From NCBI GenBank assembly GCA_042568575.1, contig JBHPIO010000013.1:1-30112 (forward strand): a stretch of 30,112 nt of DNA. The letters run 5' to 3'. The stretch comes from Patescibacteria group bacterium. GTDB taxonomy: Bacteria > Patescibacteriota > Gracilibacteria > UBA1369 > PNNO01. Position 1 is the first letter of the stretch. Every line of letters starts with the position of its first letter. Shown piece after piece: positions 2,906 to 24,248 of this stretch. The notes under the pieces were generated by a model that was not told where the DNA came from, ran no database searches, and saw nothing but the letters and a program-made list of their open reading frames with translations. A program made the translations under genes and the position numbers.

Positions 2906-3637
2906 CTAATGAACGGCTTGGAGTTCTGGTACGCTGGCAGGAGTAGGACGAATAGAGGTTTGCGTACTTGGGAAGAAGGGATTGAGGAGCGGATCGCTGG
3001 GCTGGCAGTCTTGCACGGTCAGCTTGCCGATCAGGTCATGTTCGAAGAAGAAACGCCACGCTTGCGTGAGCAGTGACGGTTGCAGAGCGACAATGATCGG
3101 CACGGCCTTATCCCAAAACGTCAGGTTGGGATAGCTTTTCGGCCTGCGAACGATCTGCAGATCGGGACTTGTTACCTGAATCCCCATGGATCTGATCATG
3201 AAGTCGCGCAAACGAGGCTGCTGGTTTGCGATGATCCACTTCTTGCCGAGAGCGGTCGAGAAGATGGCCGTACTAAACATCAGAATCGGGGATACGATGA
3301 GCCCTTGATGACGATATGTATCGAATACGGTCTGTCGGCAGACCTCGAACGTCCTGCCCTTGTCGAGCTTTGGCTCGACTCGTTTCAGGTTGTCCCACCC
3401 GAAGTACTCAGCGGTATCGAGGGGATCGTCGTGCAGAGCGATTGCACCCATCAGGTCGCCTTCGTCGATGTTCTCGAGCACGATGAGATGTTTGGGGTCG
3501 AAAACTTCGAAACGGGTACTGAGTCCGATCTCCTTTCTGTACACATCCGCTACACCTTCGAGTACACGCGGACGTTCCTCCGCACTTGCGAAGCGGAGAC
3601 ACATTTGCGGCAGGTTTACACTTTCAGTCCTTTCCAT
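2906..3637 (-). CDS. GNAT-fold acyltransferase of the N-acyl amino acid synthase (FeeM)/LuxI/thermostable-hemolysin-like group
   Basis: Motif order LRFASAEER..VY..; MGAIAL..DPLDTAEYF; GRTFEVCRQTV..YR (compare EVSRLAV..YR); QPRLRDFM.R.MG (compare PRH..FY...GF). SD TAAGGAG overlaps the upstream stop. Family recognised by eye. Confidence 0.6.
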   Translation of the reverse strand: MERTESVNLPQMCLRFASAEERPRVLEGVADVYRKEIGLSTRFEVFDPKHLIVLENIDEGDLMGAIALHDDPLDTAEYFGWDNLKRVEPKLDKGRTFEVCRQTVFDTYRHQGLIVSPILMFSTAIFSTALGKKWIIANQQPRLRDFMIRSMGIQVTSPDLQIVRRPKSYPNLTFWDKAVPIIVALQPSLLTQAWRFFFEHDLIGKLTVQDCQPSDPLLNPFFPSTQTSIRPTPASVPELQAVH

Positions 3638-3649
3638 CTTTCCCTCTCC

Positions 3650-4483
3650 TTACACGGGTTGAGCCACCATCATGTGGCATTGATTCCCATAGGTGAGCGC
3701 TTCATACGAGATGCTGCACCCAGCTTTTATAAGTGATTCTTTCAGTTGCTGATTAGTCGTGAAGTGATACGTTTTTTCCTCTTGGGCCCTCCGAACGATC
3801 TCTACGTTAATCTCTCCTAGTTTGGATAGAATTTCGGTTACAGGCTGATCTTGGAATCCACGCAGCATTCGCGCATACTCATGTTCGGTAACACTCATTG
3901 CAATTTCCGCAACAGAAGCATTCCCAAACAGTTCTCGAGACAACTGGTTCAACTTTGCAAGATCATTCGTGCGCCATCTTTCAACATCTTTAGGCGATTG
4001 ATCGAGCTGAGCCATCAGGATGAGCCCCATGAATTGTCCAGCGTCTGGATTCACGAGAATCATCTTTCCGTCTTGGTGCAGGTGGCGCTTCAGCATCCTG
4101 ATAGCCGTGTCTGGATCTGGAAGAGCGTACAAGACTTGTGAGCATAGGATGCAATGAAATCGTTCTTCCAAATCCACGTTTTGTGACAGATCCAGTTGCT
4201 CGAAGGAATAATTCGAGCCAATGAGCTTTTCCTGGGCATGTTCCAACATGGCAGTCGAACGATCGAATCCAAATCCTCTTATTGCATTTCCAAAAGTCTG
4301 GTAAAGGGTTAACAGAAAATTTCCAGTTCCACATCCGAAATCTGCGACTCTCATCCCTGGAACGATTTCCGCAGCTTTAAGCATGTCAGCCATCAGCATA
4401 CGGTACGCTTTGAGAACGAGCAGTATGTCGTAGATCCCGGCATAACGGTCCCAGAATGTTCGGTCATTTTTTTCTGAAGTCAA
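3650..4483 (-). CDS. Class I SAM-dependent methyltransferase (small-molecule type) with C-terminal helical insertion
   Basis: FWDRYAGIYD; motif I VADFGCGTG; GFDRSTAMLE; FHCILCSQVLYALPDP; LHQDGKMIL. TTG start with SD AAGGAGGT at 4489-4496. Confidence 0.88.
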   Translation of the reverse strand: MTSEKNDRTFWDRYAGIYDILLVLKAYRMLMADMLKAAEIVPGMRVADFGCGTGNFLLTLYQTFGNAIRGFGFDRSTAMLEHAQEKLIGSNYSFEQLDLSQNVDLEERFHCILCSQVLYALPDPDTAIRMLKRHLHQDGKMILVNPDAGQFMGLILMAQLDQSPKDVERWRTNDLAKLNQLSRELFGNASVAEIAMSVTEHEYARMLRGFQDQPVTEILSKLGEINVEIVRRAQEEKTYHFTTNQQLKESLIKAGCSISYEALTYGNQCHMMVAQPV

Positions 4484-4488
4484 TTGAG

Positions 4489-4569
4489 ACCTCCTTTTTC
4501 AAAGAGCGATCAAACTTGATCGGTTGATTGAAACATTGTTCAAATCAAGAAAGAGCTCTTCAAATAGTA
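4489..4569 (-). promoter_or_regulatory. Structured leader with boxA-like motif abutting the SD
   Basis: Minus strand: -10-like TACTAT (4564-4569), imperfect hairpin 4524-4548, hairpin CGATCAA-GT-TTGATCG (4507-4522), GCTCTTTGAAAA (4496-4507), AAGGAGGT. Confidence 0.45.
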
Positions 4570-4679
4570 CAAAAAATGAGTTATCAAAGTTTCGTACTTT
4601 GTTAATATTTTTATCTGTTAAATTACAAATAAATGTTATGAATTCCTTATATAAAAATTATAGTTTTCTGGATTTTTTG

Positions 4680-4708
4680 TTGACTTCGAAAGTTAAACAT
4701 ATTATGTT
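4680..4708 (+). promoter_or_regulatory. Sigma70-type promoter for the response regulator
   Basis: TTGACT-17 nt-TATGTT. Confidence 0.4.
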
Positions 4709-4736
4709 GATCCTGCAACTCTAGCCACCTATATTT

Positions 4737-5414
4737 ATGAAAATCCTATTTGTTGAAGATGATGTTGTTACCGCTAATTTCTTGATGAGGGGGTTACAAT
4801 ATGAGGGATACACGGTGGAACATGCTTTGGATGGTCGTGAAGGATTAGATCGAATCATACATGGTTCATACGATTGTGTCATCCTGGATTTAATGTTGCC
4901 TCATATGAGTGGGGAAGATGTGTTAAAACAGGTTAGGGCTCAAAAAAAATCAGTCCCTATAATTATTTTGACAGCAATACAGGATGCAGAGACAAAAATT
5001 AAACTTTTAAATGCGGGGGCTGACGACTATTTGTTAAAGCCCTTTTCTTTTGTTGAACTTATTGCGCGAGTCAAGGCAGTAGTTAGAAGGACAAATGGTG
5101 AAAAATCTGATGATGAAATTCTAGAGGTTGATGATTTGAAGATGATACCTCGTTTACATAAAGTTGTGCGTGGTGAAAAAACAATCAAGCTCAGACTTAA
5201 AGAATATGCACTTCTTGAGTACCTTATGCGTCACCCTGAAGAAGTTGTTACGCGAGGCGCGCTTATCGAAAAAGTTTGGGATTATAATGCAAAGATTTTT
5301 TCCAATACGGTTGATTCACATATCTCAATTCTACGTAAAAAAATTAATGATGGGTTCGATAAAAAGTATATCGAGACTATCCACGGAGTAGGATATATTT
5401 TGGATGATCAATAA
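4737..5414 (+). CDS. OmpR/PhoB-family DNA-binding response regulator
   Basis: REC domain VEDD, phosphoacceptor ILDLMLP, LTA, GADDYLLKPF; winged helix EYALLEYLM...NTVDSHISILRKK...IETIHGVGY. Confidence 0.95.
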   Translation: MKILFVEDDVVTANFLMRGLQYEGYTVEHALDGREGLDRIIHGSYDCVILDLMLPHMSGEDVLKQVRAQKKSVPIIILTAIQDAETKIKLLNAGADDYLLKPFSFVELIARVKAVVRRTNGEKSDDEILEVDDLKMIPRLHKVVRGEKTIKLRLKEYALLEYLMRHPEEVVTRGALIEKVWDYNAKIFSNTVDSHISILRKKINDGFDKKYIETIHGVGYILDDQ

Positions 5415-9182: not shown

Positions 9183-10730
9183 TTAGTTAAATACAGATGT
9201 GATTTTTGAATCTAATTTAGGATACTTTTTAAAGTATTCAAGTCGCTCCGCTTTTAGCTTTTCAACCATTGAATTGTATTCATCAATTCGACCTGTTCGT
9301 TCGTAAAGTTTCTTAGGCTGAATGATTTCTTCATCTTCGATTCCAGGCACTTTGGTTGCAACCATGTATCCAAAATCTGGATCTTCTTCCCACTCAATTG
9401 TATTTTCCGCAATACCTTTTACACATGCAGAAGAGTGAGGAATTTTAACTTTTTTAGATTCTTCAATTGATTCTTGTCCACCAACTCTTCCTGTGTTCAT
9501 TAGGTAAACTTCCATATCAACTTTGCCAAGTAATTCTTCAACTCTGTTGCCTTGTTGGTCGTCTAGTAACGGGAAAAATGGGTTTGTTCCAGGGATTCTA
9601 AGTGCCTTCCCTGCTTCTGCTGCACCACCAGCAGAAGTACCAGTAGTTTCACCAAGCATAAAGTATGCAGCTGCTTGTTCAGCATTTAGTTTTGCAACAG
9701 ATGGGATGATATTTTCATTTCTATTTAAGATAATCAATGCAGAAGCTTTTTCAATTTCACTAGCTTTACCAGCATTTGGAATAGCATTTAAACTAAACAC
9801 CGCACGTCCGTTTTTTGTGTAAGACGTATCGAAAAAATCGAGTTCACCTTCTTCGTTCATAGAAACATTTTCAAGATAAGCCTTGTTGTCGATAGTTGCG
9901 TTAAAAATTGCTTCTTCAGTCTCAGGATTTAATCCGAAAGTCTTTGCAAAACATCCAGCTTCAGTAGCAAATACTTTCCCGTCAGCCATTAGTGCTAAAA
10001 AGTCATCTTGAACTGGCCGTGAATTATTTTGACTGGTAAAAGTTGTTGTAGTTTTACCGGTTCCGCTCAATCCAATAATAAGCAGTGTTTTTTCGCCATC
10101 ATCAGTTGGAACGATTTTTGCTCCAGCGTGTAAAGGAATTCCACCTCTGTCATAAACCATTTTATTCCACATCCTAAGCCCACTCTTTTTGCTCTCTCCA
10201 AAGTAATCAGAATTAAAAATTCGAGTCACATTACAATCAACACAAGATGCAATTAAACGATCATTTGCGTATCCTTTCGCTTCTAAATTTGGAGTATAAA
10301 TTATAGTTACTTCTGGCTCATAATTCTCGTTCTCATAGTTTTCTAAAGGGTAGTACATAGTCTTTTGCATCGCCGCAATATTCGCACTGCTAGGCTCAAC
10401 AATTAGTCTTGCTTTCACTCTAAACTCGGGATCGTTTCCAATATATCCATCAATCACAATCATCTCTTTATCGTTCATATATTCATTTTGAAGCTGAGCC
10501 ATTTTATCTCCTTCTTCTTTTGAAATAGTTTGGATTGTGTGAGCTTCCGGGGTGTCAGAAACCATATATGTAGATGGACCTGATCTAGAAACAACCTTCG
10601 TTGAAACATTCCAATTGCCATATTTTGTTTTCTTAGCGTTTGGCATTCGCGAAATCATTTCATCGAGTTCTTCGAAAGAAGGATTGTAGATAAAGGTGCA
10701 ATCCTGTGGGAGTTTTGCGAAAGTAGACAT
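9183..10730 (-). CDS. pckA: Phosphoenolpyruvate carboxykinase (ATP), divergent form
   Basis: SDYFGESKK, PLHAGA, kinase-1a GLSGTGKTT, QDD, EAGCFAKT, LENV, TKNGR, YLMNTG. Confidence 0.88.
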   Translation of the reverse strand: MSTFAKLPQDCTFIYNPSFEELDEMISRMPNAKKTKYGNWNVSTKVVSRSGPSTYMVSDTPEAHTIQTISKEEGDKMAQLQNEYMNDKEMIVIDGYIGNDPEFRVKARLIVEPSSANIAAMQKTMYYPLENYENENYEPEVTIIYTPNLEAKGYANDRLIASCVDCNVTRIFNSDYFGESKKSGLRMWNKMVYDRGGIPLHAGAKIVPTDDGEKTLLIIGLSGTGKTTTTFTSQNNSRPVQDDFLALMADGKVFATEAGCFAKTFGLNPETEEAIFNATIDNKAYLENVSMNEEGELDFFDTSYTKNGRAVFSLNAIPNAGKASEIEKASALIILNRNENIIPSVAKLNAEQAAAYFMLGETTGTSAGGAAEAGKALRIPGTNPFFPLLDDQQGNRVEELLGKVDMEVYLMNTGRVGGQESIEESKKVKIPHSSACVKGIAENTIEWEEDPDFGYMVATKVPGIEDEEIIQPKKLYERTGRIDEYNSMVEKLKAERLEYFKKYPKLDSKITSVFN

Positions 10731-10908: not shown

Positions 10909-10956
10909 AACCACGAAATTTTCAAACAACTCTTAATATATATTACCCACTTTTCC

Positions 10957-19851: not shown

Positions 19852-21111
19852 ATGCAGCAATCACAATTTATGGCAGCGATCAATCAGATCTGTGATGAAA
19901 AAAATATCCCAAAGGAAAAAGTTCTTGAAACGATCCAGGCCGCGCTTCGAGCGGCATACCGTAAAGATTACGGTAATCGTGAACAGAATGTCGATGTTGA
20001 ACTTAGCGATGGCGCGAATTTTGCGACAGTATTTCTTATTAGAGAAGTAGTTAAAAAAGTGGAAAATGAAGATATTGAAATTTCGGTAAAAGAAGCTCAT
20101 AAATACAAGAAGAACGCGAAAGTTGGAGATGAGATTCGAATTGATGTTACACCTATGGAGTATGGAAGAATTGCGGCACAGGCGGCAAAACAGGTGATTA
20201 TACAGCGTATTCAGGAAGCTGAACGTGAAGTAATGTACGACACATTCAAAGACCGTGAAAATGAGCTTATTAACGCGCTTGTTCATAGAGTAGAACATCA
20301 ACAAGTTTATGTGAATCTTGATAATAAAATTACAACAATGCTTCCCCCAGATCATCAGATTCCTGGTGAGCAGTATTATGGCGGACAACGTATTAAGCTT
20401 TATCTTGATAAGGTAATCAAGACCACCAAGGGTCCTCAACTTGTTATTTCAAGGACGCACCCAAACCTTGTTCGAAAACTTCTAGAACTTGAAATTCCTG
20501 AAATTAAATCAGGTGTTGTTGAGATAAAAGGAATTGCGCGTGAGGCTGGTGTTCGATGTAAAGTTGCAGTTTCTTCTAATGATGAAAAGATTGATCCAAT
20601 TGGATCTTGTGTTGGGCAAAAGGGTGTTCGTGTTCAGAACATTATGGATGAGCTTAATGGCGAAAAAATAGATATTATCCCATGGATCGAAGAGCAACAG
20701 GACTACATTAAGATTGCACTTGCTCCTGCAAAAGTTGCACATATTAAACTTGATGAAAAAGCTAAACGAGCTGCTTGTTATGTGAACCCAGATCAACGTC
20801 CACTAGCGATTGGAAAGAACGGGCAAAATGTACGTCTGGCTTCAGAGTTAACTAATTGGGAAATTGATATTTTGGATATTGGAGACCTTAATGAGAAGGA
20901 TGCTGCGGCAAAAGAAAAAGCGGAAAAGAAAGAAGCTTTGACAATAGATGATTTAGATATCAAGAAGACTATTTTAGATAAATTAAGAGCAGCAAATCTT
21001 ACTTCGATAGAGCAGCTAAAAGGACTGAGTGTAAAGGACCTTACCTCTGTCGAAGGAATTGGAGAAAAATCGGCTGAAGGGATTGTTGCGGCGATTAAAG
21101 GTGTTAAGTAA
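19852..21111 (+). CDS. nusA: Transcription termination/antitermination factor NusA
   Basis: YGRIAAQAAKQVIIQRI, ISRTHP, LEIPEI, AREAG.RCKVAV, DPIGSCVGQKG.RV, AIGKNGQNVRLA; C-terminal HhH (VEGIGEKSA). Confidence 0.97.
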   Translation: MQQSQFMAAINQICDEKNIPKEKVLETIQAALRAAYRKDYGNREQNVDVELSDGANFATVFLIREVVKKVENEDIEISVKEAHKYKKNAKVGDEIRIDVTPMEYGRIAAQAAKQVIIQRIQEAEREVMYDTFKDRENELINALVHRVEHQQVYVNLDNKITTMLPPDHQIPGEQYYGGQRIKLYLDKVIKTTKGPQLVISRTHPNLVRKLLELEIPEIKSGVVEIKGIAREAGVRCKVAVSSNDEKIDPIGSCVGQKGVRVQNIMDELNGEKIDIIPWIEEQQDYIKIALAPAKVAHIKLDEKAKRAACYVNPDQRPLAIGKNGQNVRLASELTNWEIDILDIGDLNEKDAAAKEKAEKKEALTIDDLDIKKTILDKLRAANLTSIEQLKGLSVKDLTSVEGIGEKSAEGIVAAIKGVK

Positions 21112-21128
21112 ATAAGTCCCCAGAGGGC

Positions 21129-21157
21129 TTGACAAAAGACCCAAAATAGTGCATTAT
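21129..21157 (+). promoter_or_regulatory. Promoter of the lipoprotein cassette overlapped by an 11-bp inverted repeat
   Basis: TTGACA-17 nt-CATTAT; AGACCCAAAAT (21137-21147) / ATTTTGGGTCT (21170-21180). Confidence 0.55.
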
Positions 21158-21248
21158 GTATTCCTTTGCATTTTGGGTCTGTTTTCTTGTCTGAATGGCA
21201 GCCCCGATTGTACGGGCTGCTAATTGAAAAATTGAAAGGAGGTGCCCA

Positions 21249-21530
21249 ATGAGGTACTTGCTTATGGTTCTGGCCATTATGGCCGCGAGTTTGACTGCGT
21301 GTTCCAGCACCACTAAGTCCGAGGATACGGACGACTGGAATTTGATCAGCATGCCCTCGGATTTCCGTGTGGGCAGGTCGGTCGACAAAACGGTGCAGAT
21401 CACGTGCGTCACAATCAAATCAACCAGGGAAGAAGTTCGCATGAGCGAATGGCTGCGAATGCAGCTCCCCCAAACCGAACTCAAGAGCGTCAAGCTCTGC
21501 GAGGCGGGGAAAGGAGACCGCCAACCGTAG
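21249..21530 (+). CDS. Small putative lipoprotein
   Basis: MRYLLMVLAIMAASLTA-C lipobox; SD AAGGAGGTG at 21236-21244; two further Cys; GC-rich; has its own terminator. Confidence 0.75.
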   Translation: MRYLLMVLAIMAASLTACSSTTKSEDTDDWNLISMPSDFRVGRSVDKTVQITCVTIKSTREEVRMSEWLRMQLPQTELKSVKLCEAGKGDRQP

Positions 21531-21579
21531 CAAACCAACCACCTCCGTTCAACAACTAGTTTCGTAGCAGTTTATAAAA

Positions 21580-21610
21580 CCACGGTGTGTTCGCACGCCG
21601 TGGCTTTTTT
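21580..21610 (+). terminator. Intrinsic terminator of the lipoprotein gene
   Basis: 10-bp stem CCACGGTGTG-TTCG-CACGCCGTGG then CTTTTTT. Confidence 0.88.
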
Positions 21611-21622
21611 ATATATGAAGGA

Positions 21623-21651
21623 TTGAAAAAAGGTCAAAAAAGTGCTAAAAT
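21623..21651 (+). promoter_or_regulatory. Promoter of the 857-aa ORF
   Basis: TTGAAA-17 nt-TAAAAT with extended TGc. Confidence 0.6.
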
Positions 21652-21674
21652 ATAAGGAAAAATAAAAATGAAAA

Positions 21675-24248
21675 ATGGGAGAAACAAATCGGCGTAGGCC
21701 TGAAACAAAATCTGCAAACTTAAATGACCCTGAAAAAGCGGCTCTAGTTAAGTTATACAAAAGCACGCAATATATACAGCTTTATAATGTTCCTTTTACA
21801 GGAGATAAAACGAATCCGCTTATTGCAAAGCTAAAGAAGCTTAGAAAATACAGGCGTTATTCAGTGCCAGGGCAAATTCTGGTGGATTTTTACAATGGAA
21901 TTAAAGACAAACTTGATAAAGAGCATCCACTAGTTAGAAGGCTGTTTATTGGCGTGCTTATGAGAAGATTAAAATATAAAGGAAGATCGCCTGGTTTGAA
22001 GCCCTTTATGAATCTCATAGTTGCTGAGACAGGCAGACTCAAGCCACTTTTAGTAAAACATATTAAAGAACTTATTCAGCTCGTGAAAGACCTACCTCCT
22101 GGGCGTTATAAAGACCGAATGATTAATGAACTTCTCACATCAGGAGGAATAAAAGGTCCACTGCAAAGGCCCGGCGATCCTTTGTTTGGCAAAGAAGGAA
22201 ACGCCGCGAGAGGAGGGGAGCAGCCTGTTGAAGAATATGGGCTACTTGAACCAATTACACCAGTTCTTGGCGGAAATGAAATATTGGATCCAAAAACTTT
22301 AGATCCTCTCCAGCTAATTCTATATAAAAGGCTTGTGAGAGGATACAATAAGTTGGCAACAACACTTCCAAAAAAACTTGCACCACTATTTGCTTTTCAT
22401 AAGCTCAGATATTTGAAGAAAAAACTATACAAAGCAATTCATGATTTTGGTGCATGGATTGCTGAGACTGTAAAAAAAATGCCTATCACAAAGGTTAATG
22501 AGCTTGAAAGCATTTATAGAGCAAGGGTTAAAGCATTATCACTTCCATCTCTTCCATACAAGATAGACGTTCCCGCTCCATGGTTTCTTAAAATTCCAGG
22601 AATCACACCAAGTAAAATAAAAAAACTTAGAAAGTTACTTACTAATATTCGAGGTAAAGCAGAATCAAGTTTAAGAAAAGCAGTACTAGCTGAGGCAAAA
22701 TCTATAAAAAGAATCTCGCAATACGCACCAATGGTCTTGACGCAATTGAAGCGAAGGAAAATGTACAGAAATAGTCCAACAAACAGAGTATTTCTTAATC
22801 GAATTTGGGACTTTGTTTATGCTCAATACAAAAGTGCACCGGAAGGTAGTAAAGGGGAATATGAGTTCTATTCTATGGTATTAGATAGTATTAAAGACGA
22901 TAATGAATTGCTTAGCATTATTGATAAAGTTAAACCGCTCCTCGTTGCAGTACTTAAGTTTAATCCAGAAGCTAATAAACTAAGTAAAGCATATTTTGGA
23001 AAAAGTTTTAGCCAGTTATCAATTACTGAAATTGAATCTATTCTAAAGCTATTATTGCCTTCTAGAACACTTACTGTAAGAGAAAAACAAACAACTGTAT
23101 ATAAAGATGGCGTTGCGTTCATGAGAAGAATCCTATTCGAAAATCTTGGCGTGGATGCGATGAAAAATAAAAATCATGCAAAATATCTTGCGATGACAAC
23201 TATTGCTCATCGGTTAGTCATTATTTATACATCTCTTGCAACAGAAAGAAATGTTTTAAAGGCAAAAAAGAGGATTGCTGAATTTGTACAAGGATTTGCT
23301 ACTATGAAAAAAATCTTAGGAAAAGAGGGTATGCGAGCATTGACTATTAAAGCTCCTGGCTTCGCTTTTGTATTAAAAAAGCCGGAACAAATAGTGTTCT
23401 TTTTAAAAACAATTGCTGAAAAGCAAAGTGTAAAAGCTGCACTTTCTAGATTTGAAAAAATTCATAGTTTGAAACATCCTCCAGTTGTAAAAGCGATGAT
23501 GGGTAGGGTACAAAACATAAGAAAAGATTTATTGGGACAGGAAAAAGCTTACAAGGCACAAAGGGATAGGGCATTTAAAAAAGGAAAGCTTGATTATGGA
23601 GTAATGAAAAAGATTCAAGCTATTCGAGCGGAAATAAAAAAAATGCAGCATTTAGTTGCGCTTCTAGTGGAGACAACAACTGAGGCAGCCTTCAAAAAAC
23701 TAGAGCCAGTAATTAAAGGTCTTCTTTACGGAACTAGATCTCTTAAAGTAAGTTCAAGAGCTCAAAAACAAATTTCTTTTACTGCAGTGGAAAAATCTCG
23801 AAGATTAAAAACGAACTACGACAGTCTTTTTTACGTATCAACGCATCTCCAAAAATACATACTCATGATGATTAGAATGGTTTATTTAAACAAAGGACTT
23901 AAGTATGAATATGCGAAAATATCTGGTGCAATTAAGGGTATTATTCTTACATACGGTTATGAAAAGCAGCGGGAAATTGCAAAACGGGGAGCATATGATT
24001 ATTTAAGAAGTCCAGTAGAACGAAAGGCGTTCATCAAAGAAGTTGTTGCCAGAGTGAACGGATTTTTGAAAACCACGAAATTAACAGACAAAAACCATAA
24101 AGTAGTGCCGCTTATGCATATTACTGGATCATTTGAGGCATTAGTAGAGGGATATATTCGCTCAAGAATTATCCCAAAAGCAAAACGTATTGCTCGTGCT
24201 AAAAGGAAACAACGACCACCACAAGCACCTGGAACCAAACCAACTTAA
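21675..24248 (+). CDS. Large Lys/Arg-rich hypothetical protein
   Basis: 857-codon ORF with upstream promoter; no recognisable motif, signal peptide or TM segment. Confidence 0.8.
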   Translation: MGETNRRRPETKSANLNDPEKAALVKLYKSTQYIQLYNVPFTGDKTNPLIAKLKKLRKYRRYSVPGQILVDFYNGIKDKLDKEHPLVRRLFIGVLMRRLKYKGRSPGLKPFMNLIVAETGRLKPLLVKHIKELIQLVKDLPPGRYKDRMINELLTSGGIKGPLQRPGDPLFGKEGNAARGGEQPVEEYGLLEPITPVLGGNEILDPKTLDPLQLILYKRLVRGYNKLATTLPKKLAPLFAFHKLRYLKKKLYKAIHDFGAWIAETVKKMPITKVNELESIYRARVKALSLPSLPYKIDVPAPWFLKIPGITPSKIKKLRKLLTNIRGKAESSLRKAVLAEAKSIKRISQYAPMVLTQLKRRKMYRNSPTNRVFLNRIWDFVYAQYKSAPEGSKGEYEFYSMVLDSIKDDNELLSIIDKVKPLLVAVLKFNPEANKLSKAYFGKSFSQLSITEIESILKLLLPSRTLTVREKQTTVYKDGVAFMRRILFENLGVDAMKNKNHAKYLAMTTIAHRLVIIYTSLATERNVLKAKKRIAEFVQGFATMKKILGKEGMRALTIKAPGFAFVLKKPEQIVFFLKTIAEKQSVKAALSRFEKIHSLKHPPVVKAMMGRVQNIRKDLLGQEKAYKAQRDRAFKKGKLDYGVMKKIQAIRAEIKKMQHLVALLVETTTEAAFKKLEPVIKGLLYGTRSLKVSSRAQKQISFTAVEKSRRLKTNYDSLFYVSTHLQKYILMMIRMVYLNKGLKYEYAKISGAIKGIILTYGYEKQREIAKRGAYDYLRSPVERKAFIKEVVARVNGFLKTTKLTDKNHKVVPLMHITGSFEALVEGYIRSRIIPKAKRIARAKRKQRPPQAPGTKPT

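Follow-up and report, generated by a model that had tools for sequence, protein, structure and literature searches.

A candidate boxA before an acquired methyltransferase operon in a Gracilibacteria genome, and a separate leader module before a lipoprotein gene

Two cassettes of high guanine-plus-cytosine (GC) content stand in one contig of a Patescibacteria group bacterium, and their leaders raise the question of whether boxA, and with it the Nus factors, takes part in the expression of such genes. BoxA of rRNA operons is, with boxB and boxC, the NusB-NusE/S10 site of the rrn antitermination complex, and its consensus in gamma-proteobacteria is GYTCTTTAANA. The stretch analysed, called the window hereafter, is contig JBHPIO010000013.1 of GenBank assembly GCA_042568575.1 (30,112 nt). 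The original prediction held that the leader of a methyltransferase gene (site 1) and that of a lipoprotein gene (site 2) share a hairpin, a boxA-like motif and a strong Shine-Dalgarno (SD) sequence. From a comparison with the rRNA leaders of the order to which the genome belongs, we give an even chance to the reading that site 1 is a genuine boxA of the lineage, predicted to be a NusB/S10 site of the 23S-leader type, that site 2 belongs to a separate module, and that a minority of GC-rich genes is boxA-led. The assembly comprises 1.2 Mb in 31 contigs with a completeness of 82%; it is labelled G000, the window being its contig C5, and G001 is a sister genome of the same genus. The leader of the methyltransferase gene contains the following features.

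4481-4483, minus strand: TTG start codon of the methyltransferase
4490-4495, minus strand: SD sequence AGGAGG, directly abutting the boxA (0 nt) and 6 nt ahead of the TTG
4495-4507, minus strand: site 1 as a 13-mer of boxA type, GCTCTTTGAAAAA
4496-4507, minus strand: site 1 as the 12-mer of the original prediction, GCTCTTTGAAAA
4507-4522, minus strand: palindrome CGATCAAGTTTGATCG (CGATCAA-GT-TTGATCG), 16 nt, overlapping the boxA by one base (its final G is boxA G1)
4549-4556, minus strand: a second GCTCTTTC within the palindrome AAGAGCTCTT, upstream of site 1

The boxA of the lineage can be read from its rRNA leaders. The 16S and 23S genes of the source genome are unlinked (C1:202067-203530 and C1:178596-181589, about 20 kb apart), and each is preceded by a separate sigma-70 promoter and boxA leader. 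The 16S leaders of 21 genomes of the order read G-N-N-C-Y-T-T-A-A-C-A-T followed by TTAGRG (GTTCTTTGAAAAT in one genome), and the 23S leaders of 17 genomes have a hairpin with a U-run followed by G-N-Y-C-N-T-T-G-A-M-A-A-T. The 23S boxA is GCTCATTGAAAAT in G004 and G010 and GCTCGTTGAAAAT in G020, and in all three genomes the 23S-leader boxA spells out the pattern GCTnnTTGAAAA literally. C at position 4 and T at positions 6 and 7 are present in all 38 rRNA boxAs, and position 5 varies freely in the 23S leaders (C, A, T or G). This comparison yields a boxA consensus for the order, with the 16S and 23S types kept separate, and about ten candidate sites in the source genome. Just upstream of the 23S boxA, a terminator-like hairpin (GAGTGTGT..ACACAC with a U-run) is kept across the order.

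Position weight matrices (PWMs) were trained without the source genome, the 23S PWM being built from the leaders of 16 relatives. The scores of site 1 were 16.1 (23S PWM), 7.0 (16S PWM) and 14.0 bits (both combined), and those of the genome's own 23S boxA were 19.1, 8.9 and 16.0 bits in the same order. On both strands of the whole genome there are nine positions of at least 16 bits, site 1 included (five of the nine are intergenic), and 215 of at least 11 bits. Site 1 has G1, T3, C4, T6, T7, A9 and A11, all of them invariant or nearly so in the 38 rRNA boxAs, and it agrees with the boxA consensus including C4 and T6, whereas site 2 and its sister copies depart from this consensus by an A at position 4. 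Judged by its sequence, site 1 qualifies as a boxA, and by function it is a putative one.

Beyond rRNA, boxA on protein-coding leaders can be considered a conserved feature of the lineage, as GCTCATTGAAAAT is retained ahead of the orthologous genes for SLH-domain surface proteins of G005 and G006 (49% identity), whose leaders are otherwise divergent. Site 1 is therefore more credible. Elsewhere in G005, the leader at C3:59939-60970 (minus strand; gene GC 0.46) carries GCTCTTTGAAAAC (15.9 bits), with a core identical to that of site 1, directly after a CGAAC..GTTCG stem, the final G of the stem doubling as the first base of the boxA, as at site 1. Within the window, GTTGTTTGAAAAT at 10918-10930 (minus strand; 11.5 bits) has G for C at position 4, sits 187 nt upstream of a 515-aa gene (9183-10730) and is probably background.

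Site 1 ends 12 nt ahead of the start codon, upstream of the SD, and is almost certainly transcribed. NusB-S10, with NusA and SuhB, would load on the nascent leader. With the site in contact with the SD, the likeliest effect would be that binding damps translation initiation, by analogy with suhB of E. coli; alternatively, the site may give the transcript processive elongation of the rRNA type. The genome has nusB (C3:29299-29688), nusA in the window and a gene of the IMPase/SuhB family. The presence of nusB thus agrees with the original prediction, and the same check for rho came out negative: none of the 41 genomes searched in the order, of which 32 are at least 90% complete, gave a match to the Pfam domain Rho_RNA_bind, whereas 9 of 14 model genomes used as control did. 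As Rho was not found in the order, it would have no part in the mechanism at site 1, and the Rho-linked mechanism of E. coli is not simply transferable.

The letters of the predicted hairpin, motif and SD are all present at site 1, and the hairpin itself needs correction, since a 7-bp stem with a 2-nt loop is impossible and RNAfold gives 6 bp with a 4-nt loop. A functional boxA has to be single-stranded, and in the fold of the 57-nt leader (-14.3 kcal/mol, z = -2.19) site 1 is unpaired; the fold z-scores are weak (-1.7 to -2.2). The palindrome occurs once in the genome and is either a DNA operator or the RNA hairpin just described.

The lipoprotein leader differs from this, and its features, with those of its surroundings, are as follows.

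19852-21111: nusA, after which the site 2 lipoprotein cassette is inserted
21129-21157, plus strand: promoter of sigma-70 type, TTGACA-17-CATTAT, conserved in both other copies of the module
21160-21235, plus strand: 5' leader module (model R1), consisting of UCCUUUGCA, a U/C-rich tract, a 9-bp hairpin and UAAUUGAAA
21196-21222, plus strand: stem of the 9-bp hairpin, TGGCAGCCC / GGGCTGCTA
21219-21230, plus strand: GCTAATTGAAAA, the site 2 motif, in which boxA position 4 is A
21237-21242, plus strand: SD sequence AGGAGG, 6 nt before the ATG at 21249
21249-21530, plus strand: putative lipoprotein of 93 aa with a signal peptide ending in LTAC, GC about 0.55
21580-21613, plus strand: hairpin and T-run resembling an intrinsic terminator, closing the cassette

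Here too hairpin, motif and SD are present in letters, with the correction that the first four letters of the motif lie within the stem. Considered as a NusB-S10 target (GCUAAUUGAAAA), site 2 scored 11.2 bits with the 23S PWM, -4.2 bits with the 16S PWM and 5.4 bits combined. When the two sites are set against the rRNA boxA of the lineage, site 1 fits the 23S type, and site 2 has A at position 4, where C is found in 38/38. C4A, like C4T/T6C, abolishes boxA function in E. coli (PMC5725501), where we take C4 to be the C of GYTCTTTAANA from the main text of that paper. Because of this A, site 2 is judged not to be a boxA; GCTAATTGAAAA would be the 3' foot of a hairpin and its flank, within a genus-specific module of about 110 nt composed of a promoter and a 5' untranslated region (5' UTR).

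The evidence for such a module comes from its other copies. The motif of site 2 lies 62 nt downstream of the promoter, and a blastn search with the leader matched C2:29052-29089 (38 nt, 92%, E = 3.5e-8). This second locus has a promoter TTGACA-17-CATAAT and the same leader, followed by a different GC-rich lipoprotein gene (186 aa) that adjoins a tRNA gene (tRNA-Trp by aragorn), and G001 holds its orthologue with the module intact. The 93-aa lipoprotein was not found in 40 relatives, and BLASTP gave no alignment between the 93-aa and 186-aa proteins. A covariance model searched in 13 genomes of the family found three copies of R1 (window, G000:C2:29019-29095 and G001:C121:12109-12184; 98-102 bits), with a mean column identity of 89% and with two changes in the stem, namely one pair from A-U to G-U and one loop-closing pair from G-C to A-U. 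At the DNA level, the search for further copies in 41 relatives returned only the G001 orthologue and two short weak matches (G003 and G039), and a pattern scan found only the G001 contig among genome contigs and none among metagenome contigs. The C2 copy scored 6.3, -2.0 and 5.4 bits with the 23S, 16S and combined PWMs. Site 2 is better read as part of a portable promoter/5' UTR unit that precedes two unrelated GC-rich lipoprotein genes and would drive both of them.

Single-sequence folds allow the GGAGG region to pair with two elements upstream of the hairpin, the conserved U/C-rich tract and UCCUUU, a likeness to RNA thermometers and other 5' UTRs that sequester the SD. Unlike those, site 2 is represented by three sequences only, has no Rfam match, and did not show the SD pairing in the consensus fold of the three leaders, whose 3' parts were misaligned. 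As for the surroundings, nusA is not followed by infB in the window, where 21112-24248 holds the lipoprotein cassette and then an 857-aa open reading frame (ORF) without a Pfam family; another gene follows nusA in G001, and synteny breaks exactly at the nusA stop codon.

The likeness of the two leaders to each other was given as a match at 10 of 12 positions, and this proved not to exceed chance. The pattern GCTNNTTGAAAA was derived from the two sites themselves and is post hoc; its two occurrences in the window compare with an expectation of 0.40, and a count of two or more was reached in 4 of 100 shuffles. In the 1.2-Mb genome it has 17 copies, and only the two sites precede an SD and a start codon. 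Nor does the claim of a common leader hold: blastn of the site 1 leader against the genome gave nothing better than 17 nt, and the R1 covariance model did not match site 1 at E <= 0.01, on which grounds homology of the two leaders was rejected. We consider the two leaders to be two different things and the resemblance of site 2 to site 1 to be coincidental. A 10/12 match of two A/T-rich leaders, it follows as a caution, is no evidence of a shared element.

Both cassettes belong to a class of genes that stands apart in this genome. Genome GC is about 0.38, and both cassette genes lie in stretches of about 0.43-0.60 (100-nt windows). GC of the ORFs falls into two modes, the larger at 0.36-0.40 and the smaller at 0.52-0.62, and 49 of 1079 ORFs reach at least 0.47, some of them being spurious ORFs within rRNA genes. 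A strong SD is rare (a match of at least 5 nt in 14 of 1079 ORFs at the longest start), and upstream of native starts G is depleted at -14 to -1, a T stands at -15 and -14 to -10 is A-rich. The 3' end of the 16S rRNA keeps the anti-SD CACCTCCTTTC, which contains CCTCCT, and this anti-SD seems to be unused by native genes; in part of the Parcubacteria, the anti-SD motif is reported lost (PMC9297842). SD-led at the longest start were 7 of 44 GC-rich ORFs versus 5 of 1001 others. The predicted contrast between SD-led GC-rich cassettes and the rest is thus borne out, and the foreign-looking, GC-rich genes form autonomous cassettes, equipped with an SD and a consensus -35 box of their own, among native genes that have no SD.

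The cassette behind site 1 comprises the following features.

2906-4483, minus strand: GC-rich two-gene cassette, flanked by a histidine kinase gene on one side and a divergent response-regulator gene on the other
3650-4483, minus strand: S-adenosylmethionine (SAM) methyltransferase, 277 aa, gene GC 0.46
2906-3637, minus strand: 243-aa ORF without a family match, second gene of the cassette

The closest methyltransferase anywhere in the protein database has 57% identity and lies on a contig of about 1 kb, and a metagenome scan for the cassette gave identities of 35% or less; the methyltransferase operon is recently acquired. Rfam and tRNA scans of the window gave no match. Searched against PHROGs, the cassette proteins gave only generic methyltransferase matches and one weak match, of the first 27 residues of the site 2 lipoprotein (the signal-peptide region; E = 2.6e-4) to a PHROG of unknown function, and a phage origin of the islands was rejected on this basis.

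We then applied the independent PWMs to the intergenic sequence preceding each ORF (300 nt at most), taking GC of at least 0.47 as GC-rich and below 0.44 as native, so that the methyltransferase gene (0.46) falls in neither class. At 14 bits or more, sense matches preceded 6 of 38 GC-rich versus 6 of 725 native ORFs (p = 7.6e-6, in part a post hoc value), and antisense matches numbered 0 versus 9; at 11 bits or more, the sense counts were 10/38 versus 20/725 (p = 4.1e-7, post hoc in the same measure) and the antisense counts 1 versus 23. An excess on the sense strand is thus present in GC-rich leaders and absent in native ones. When windows containing TTGAC were dropped, 8/38 GC-rich versus 16/725 native leaders still had a boxA match. 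The matches precede C23:30224, C23:105050, C31:20932, C4:19078 (enoyl-CoA hydratase), C3:35853 (OPT transporter), C1:11953, C23:39226 and others, and boxA is the only thing that the leaders bearing it have in common. A DNA-level search of G001 gave no match to the island leaders of C23, C1, C4 and C3. In G006, a genome of another genus (800 of 1375 kb), the counts at 11 bits or more were 2/19 versus 4/476 (p = 0.019), and in G005, of a third genus (396 kb), 1/2 versus 4/223; pooled, they were 3/21 versus 8/699 (p = 0.003) at 11 bits or more and 2/21 versus 4/699 (p = 0.011) at 14 bits or more. Sense-strand boxA therefore seems to be over-represented before GC-rich, foreign-looking genes. It is limited to a minority of them, 6-10 of the 38 GC-rich leaders, so that the Nus-linked mode proposed for the accessory class would not be class-wide. 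Enrichment of the motif before SD-led or GC-rich genes was part of the original prediction, and it applies to matches of the rRNA-derived PWM and not to the literal pattern GCTNNTTGAAAA, which was rejected as a class marker because it is not enriched and has 17 genome copies.

An unbiased k-mer contrast of the GC-rich leaders gave as its top words TTGACA, SD words, the palindrome CCCGGGAGGA and TTTGAAAG. The 14-bp palindrome TCCTCC(C/T)GGGAGGA has seven copies (C1:131557, C3:15423, C12:91265, C12:95761, C23:57643, C23:112857 and C31:27793), none of them in the window and several before GC-rich genes, with a TTGAC -35 box 2-3 nt later in six of the seven. It looks like an operator or promoter-associated element and, because it contains GGGAGG, mimics an SD in naive scans.

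Several points weigh against the reading of site 1 as a boxA and of a boxA-led minority among GC-rich genes. Site 1 differs from the genome's own 16S boxA at 3 of 11 positions, in line with its 7.0 bits in the 16S PWM, and in an 87-nt fold its GCUCUU pairs with an upstream AAGAGC. A consensus scan of 4400-4800 found no minus-strand promoter for it, and the NGN domain of NusG was not found in the genome, which is 82% complete. No close homologue of the cassette was found in 40 relatives, so that there is no orthologue for a comparison of leaders, and the palindrome could be an operator for the divergent response regulator, and the motif could be an A/T-rich spacer before the SD. With respect to the class test, the gene calls were crude longest-ORF calls made for this analysis, which weakens it. 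The association was first noticed post hoc in the source genome with a loose regular expression, which gave boxA-like matches before 16S, 23S, transfer-messenger RNA (tmRNA) and several GC-rich genes. The 23S-type PWM overlaps the -35 hexamer TTGACA, which is itself enriched in GC-rich leaders (18/38 versus 79/725). Replication in the two other genera is modest: the direction holds, with small numbers, crude gene calls and related genomes, and in G006 the counts at 14 bits or more were 1/19 versus 3/476 (p = 0.15), with 0/9 in the first 400 kb alone.

Some of these points also speak for a chance resemblance at both sites, in which an A/T-rich spacer precedes the SD, the palindrome of site 1 is a DNA operator and Nus factors are uninvolved, an explanation to which we assign a real probability that stays clearly below one half. 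The post hoc 12-mer with its shuffles and genome copies fits it, as do the 215 and nine positions that pass 11 and 16 bits, the weak fold z-scores, the perfect 7+7 inverted repeat, which is typical of a dimer operator and unique in the genome, and the divergent response regulator of OmpR type (Trans_reg_C) 253 nt away. Chance accounts less well for a match of at least 16 bits in a leader of about 250 nt (p about 0.006, from five intergenic matches in about 210 kb on both strands), for the agreement of site 1 with every position invariant in the 38 rRNA boxAs, and for the sense-only enrichment before GC-rich genes in three genomes. We are more doubtful that boxA marks strongly expressed units in general, such as stable RNAs, S-layer and envelope genes, the GC-rich excess arising only via envelope genes with strong consensus promoters. 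This would explain the matches before 16S, 23S, tmRNA and the SLH genes of G005 and G006 (native GC 0.41), the lipoproteins, OPT transporter, M23 peptidase and SLH homologue among the GC-rich genes, and TTGACA as the most enriched k-mer. However, among leaders of at least 100 nt, which must hold promoters, 6/358 native versus 6/31 GC-rich ones reached 14 bits, and only 1 of 24 tRNA genes has a boxA of at least 10 bits, a count on which boxA was also rejected as a general mark of tRNA genes.

At the other extreme, in an order in which Rho was not found and native genes are translated without an SD, the rRNA machinery of Nus factors and boxA may have been recruited to control acquired GC-rich, SD-led genes in general. 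It would either silence their translation (a xenogeneic control tied to free NusB/S10) or provide them with processive transcription of the rRNA kind across GC-rich DNA, which the host polymerase copes with poorly. We regard this as unlikely. The full model of the original prediction, with a functional boxB-like hairpin and boxA in both leaders and a NusB-S10 that tolerates A4, appears quite improbable. It can draw on GCTAATTGAAA, which is invariant in all three module copies, on the 11.2 bits of site 2, on the variable position 5 of the 23S boxA, with which the core would be looser than in E. coli, and on the words TTGAAAG (8/38 GC-rich versus 19/725 native leaders) and TTTGAAAG (5/38 versus 6/725). 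Against it stand C4 in all 38 rRNA boxAs and the loss of E. coli boxA activity by C4A (PMC5725501), the low score of the C2 copy, the equal conservation of the whole 40-nt block, by which the invariance is not specific to the motif, and the pairing of the motif, with GCUA in the stem and AAUU pairing with the upstream U-tract in the consensus fold.

With site 1 read as a boxA of the lineage, its likeness to known systems can be stated. It resembles the rrn boxA in matching the lineage rRNA boxA at the invariant positions and in being preceded by a hairpin, like its counterparts in both types of rRNA leader here, and differs in preceding an acquired SD-led protein-coding operon, in touching the SD, in having no boxC-like TTAGAG tail, and in that no Rho, the factor against which rrn antitermination is classically directed, was found in the order. 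In the nut site of lambda, boxA comes first and boxB follows, and the N protein is required. Lambdoid nut sites share with the present leaders a foreign element that would use the host boxA/Nus machinery and a hairpin adjoining boxA, whereas here the hairpin precedes the motif at both sites, which is not the nut arrangement. Regulation of mRNAs by boxA and Nus factors is known from E. coli and from one gene of C. koseri tested in E. coli, in both cases tied to Rho, and has been predicted bioinformatically in other bacteria.

Besides the rrn boxA, the nearest parallels are those in Baniulyte et al. (2017, PMC5725501), according to which the boxA within the 5' UTR of suhB in E. coli and Salmonella lies 6 nt from the SD and Nus factors repress translation. 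Site 1 is likewise an mRNA boxA near an SD, at 0 nt versus 6 nt in suhB; in E. coli, in contrast, repression is followed by Rho termination, and suhB is a case of Nus factor autoregulation, whereas the gene at site 1 encodes a methyltransferase. The toxin gene CKO_00699 of Citrobacter koseri, as presented there, is similarly an accessory gene unrelated to translation under a boxA, but that case concerns one gene, and its host, a gamma-proteobacterium, possesses Rho. That paper expects few boxA targets per species (PMC5725501), in contrast to the class-level excess before GC-rich genes found here. The idea of boxA before accessory genes is partly supported, by statistics of a purely computational kind. 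A literature search returned, among its top-ranked results, no paper on boxA in Patescibacteria. If true, the reading would mean a Rho-independent role of Nus factors on mRNAs and a way for tiny symbiotic bacteria to domesticate foreign genes.

Further observations concern the islands and other transcripts of the source genome. Integrative islands often sit downstream of tRNA genes, and the GC-rich islands C4:18705-21613 and C2:28889-29801 lie directly downstream of tRNA-Gln and tRNA-Trp, respectively; at the C4 site, the tRNA is the only part matched in G001. The leader of a GC-rich 358-aa gene (C31:20808-20932, plus strand) has a strong SD, AAGGAGGTG, and then a mini-ORF of three codons (ATG GAC GGA TGA), both placed between a boxA-like GATCGTTGACAAA and the long ORF. 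A boxA-like GATCTTTAAAAAT (C26:47887-47899, minus strand) follows a TATAAT box and ends 2 nt before the mature 5' end of the tmRNA (47449-47884). About 330 nt upstream of a reverse-transcriptase gene with an RVT_1 domain (C24:311-1561, minus strand) there are a promoter and a boxA-like GTTCTTTGAAATA, the leader being free of ORFs, and this locus could be a retron, a diversity-generating retroelement or a group II element. Downstream of a boxA-like GACCTTTGAAAAT (C7:22091-22103), in an ORF-poor stretch with one 68-aa ORF on the strand, C7:21259-21325 (minus strand) matched the type III hammerhead ribozyme with 36.5 bits, which is below the gathering score of 48.5 (E = 4e-5). Finally, at C1:161468-162250 (plus strand) a promoter TTGACT-17-TATAAT is followed 9 nt on by GATCATTGAAAAA (17.2 bits) and then by about 780 nt that have no Rfam match and, on that strand, no ORF of at least 30 aa except one of 48 aa; this stretch may be a long non-coding RNA.

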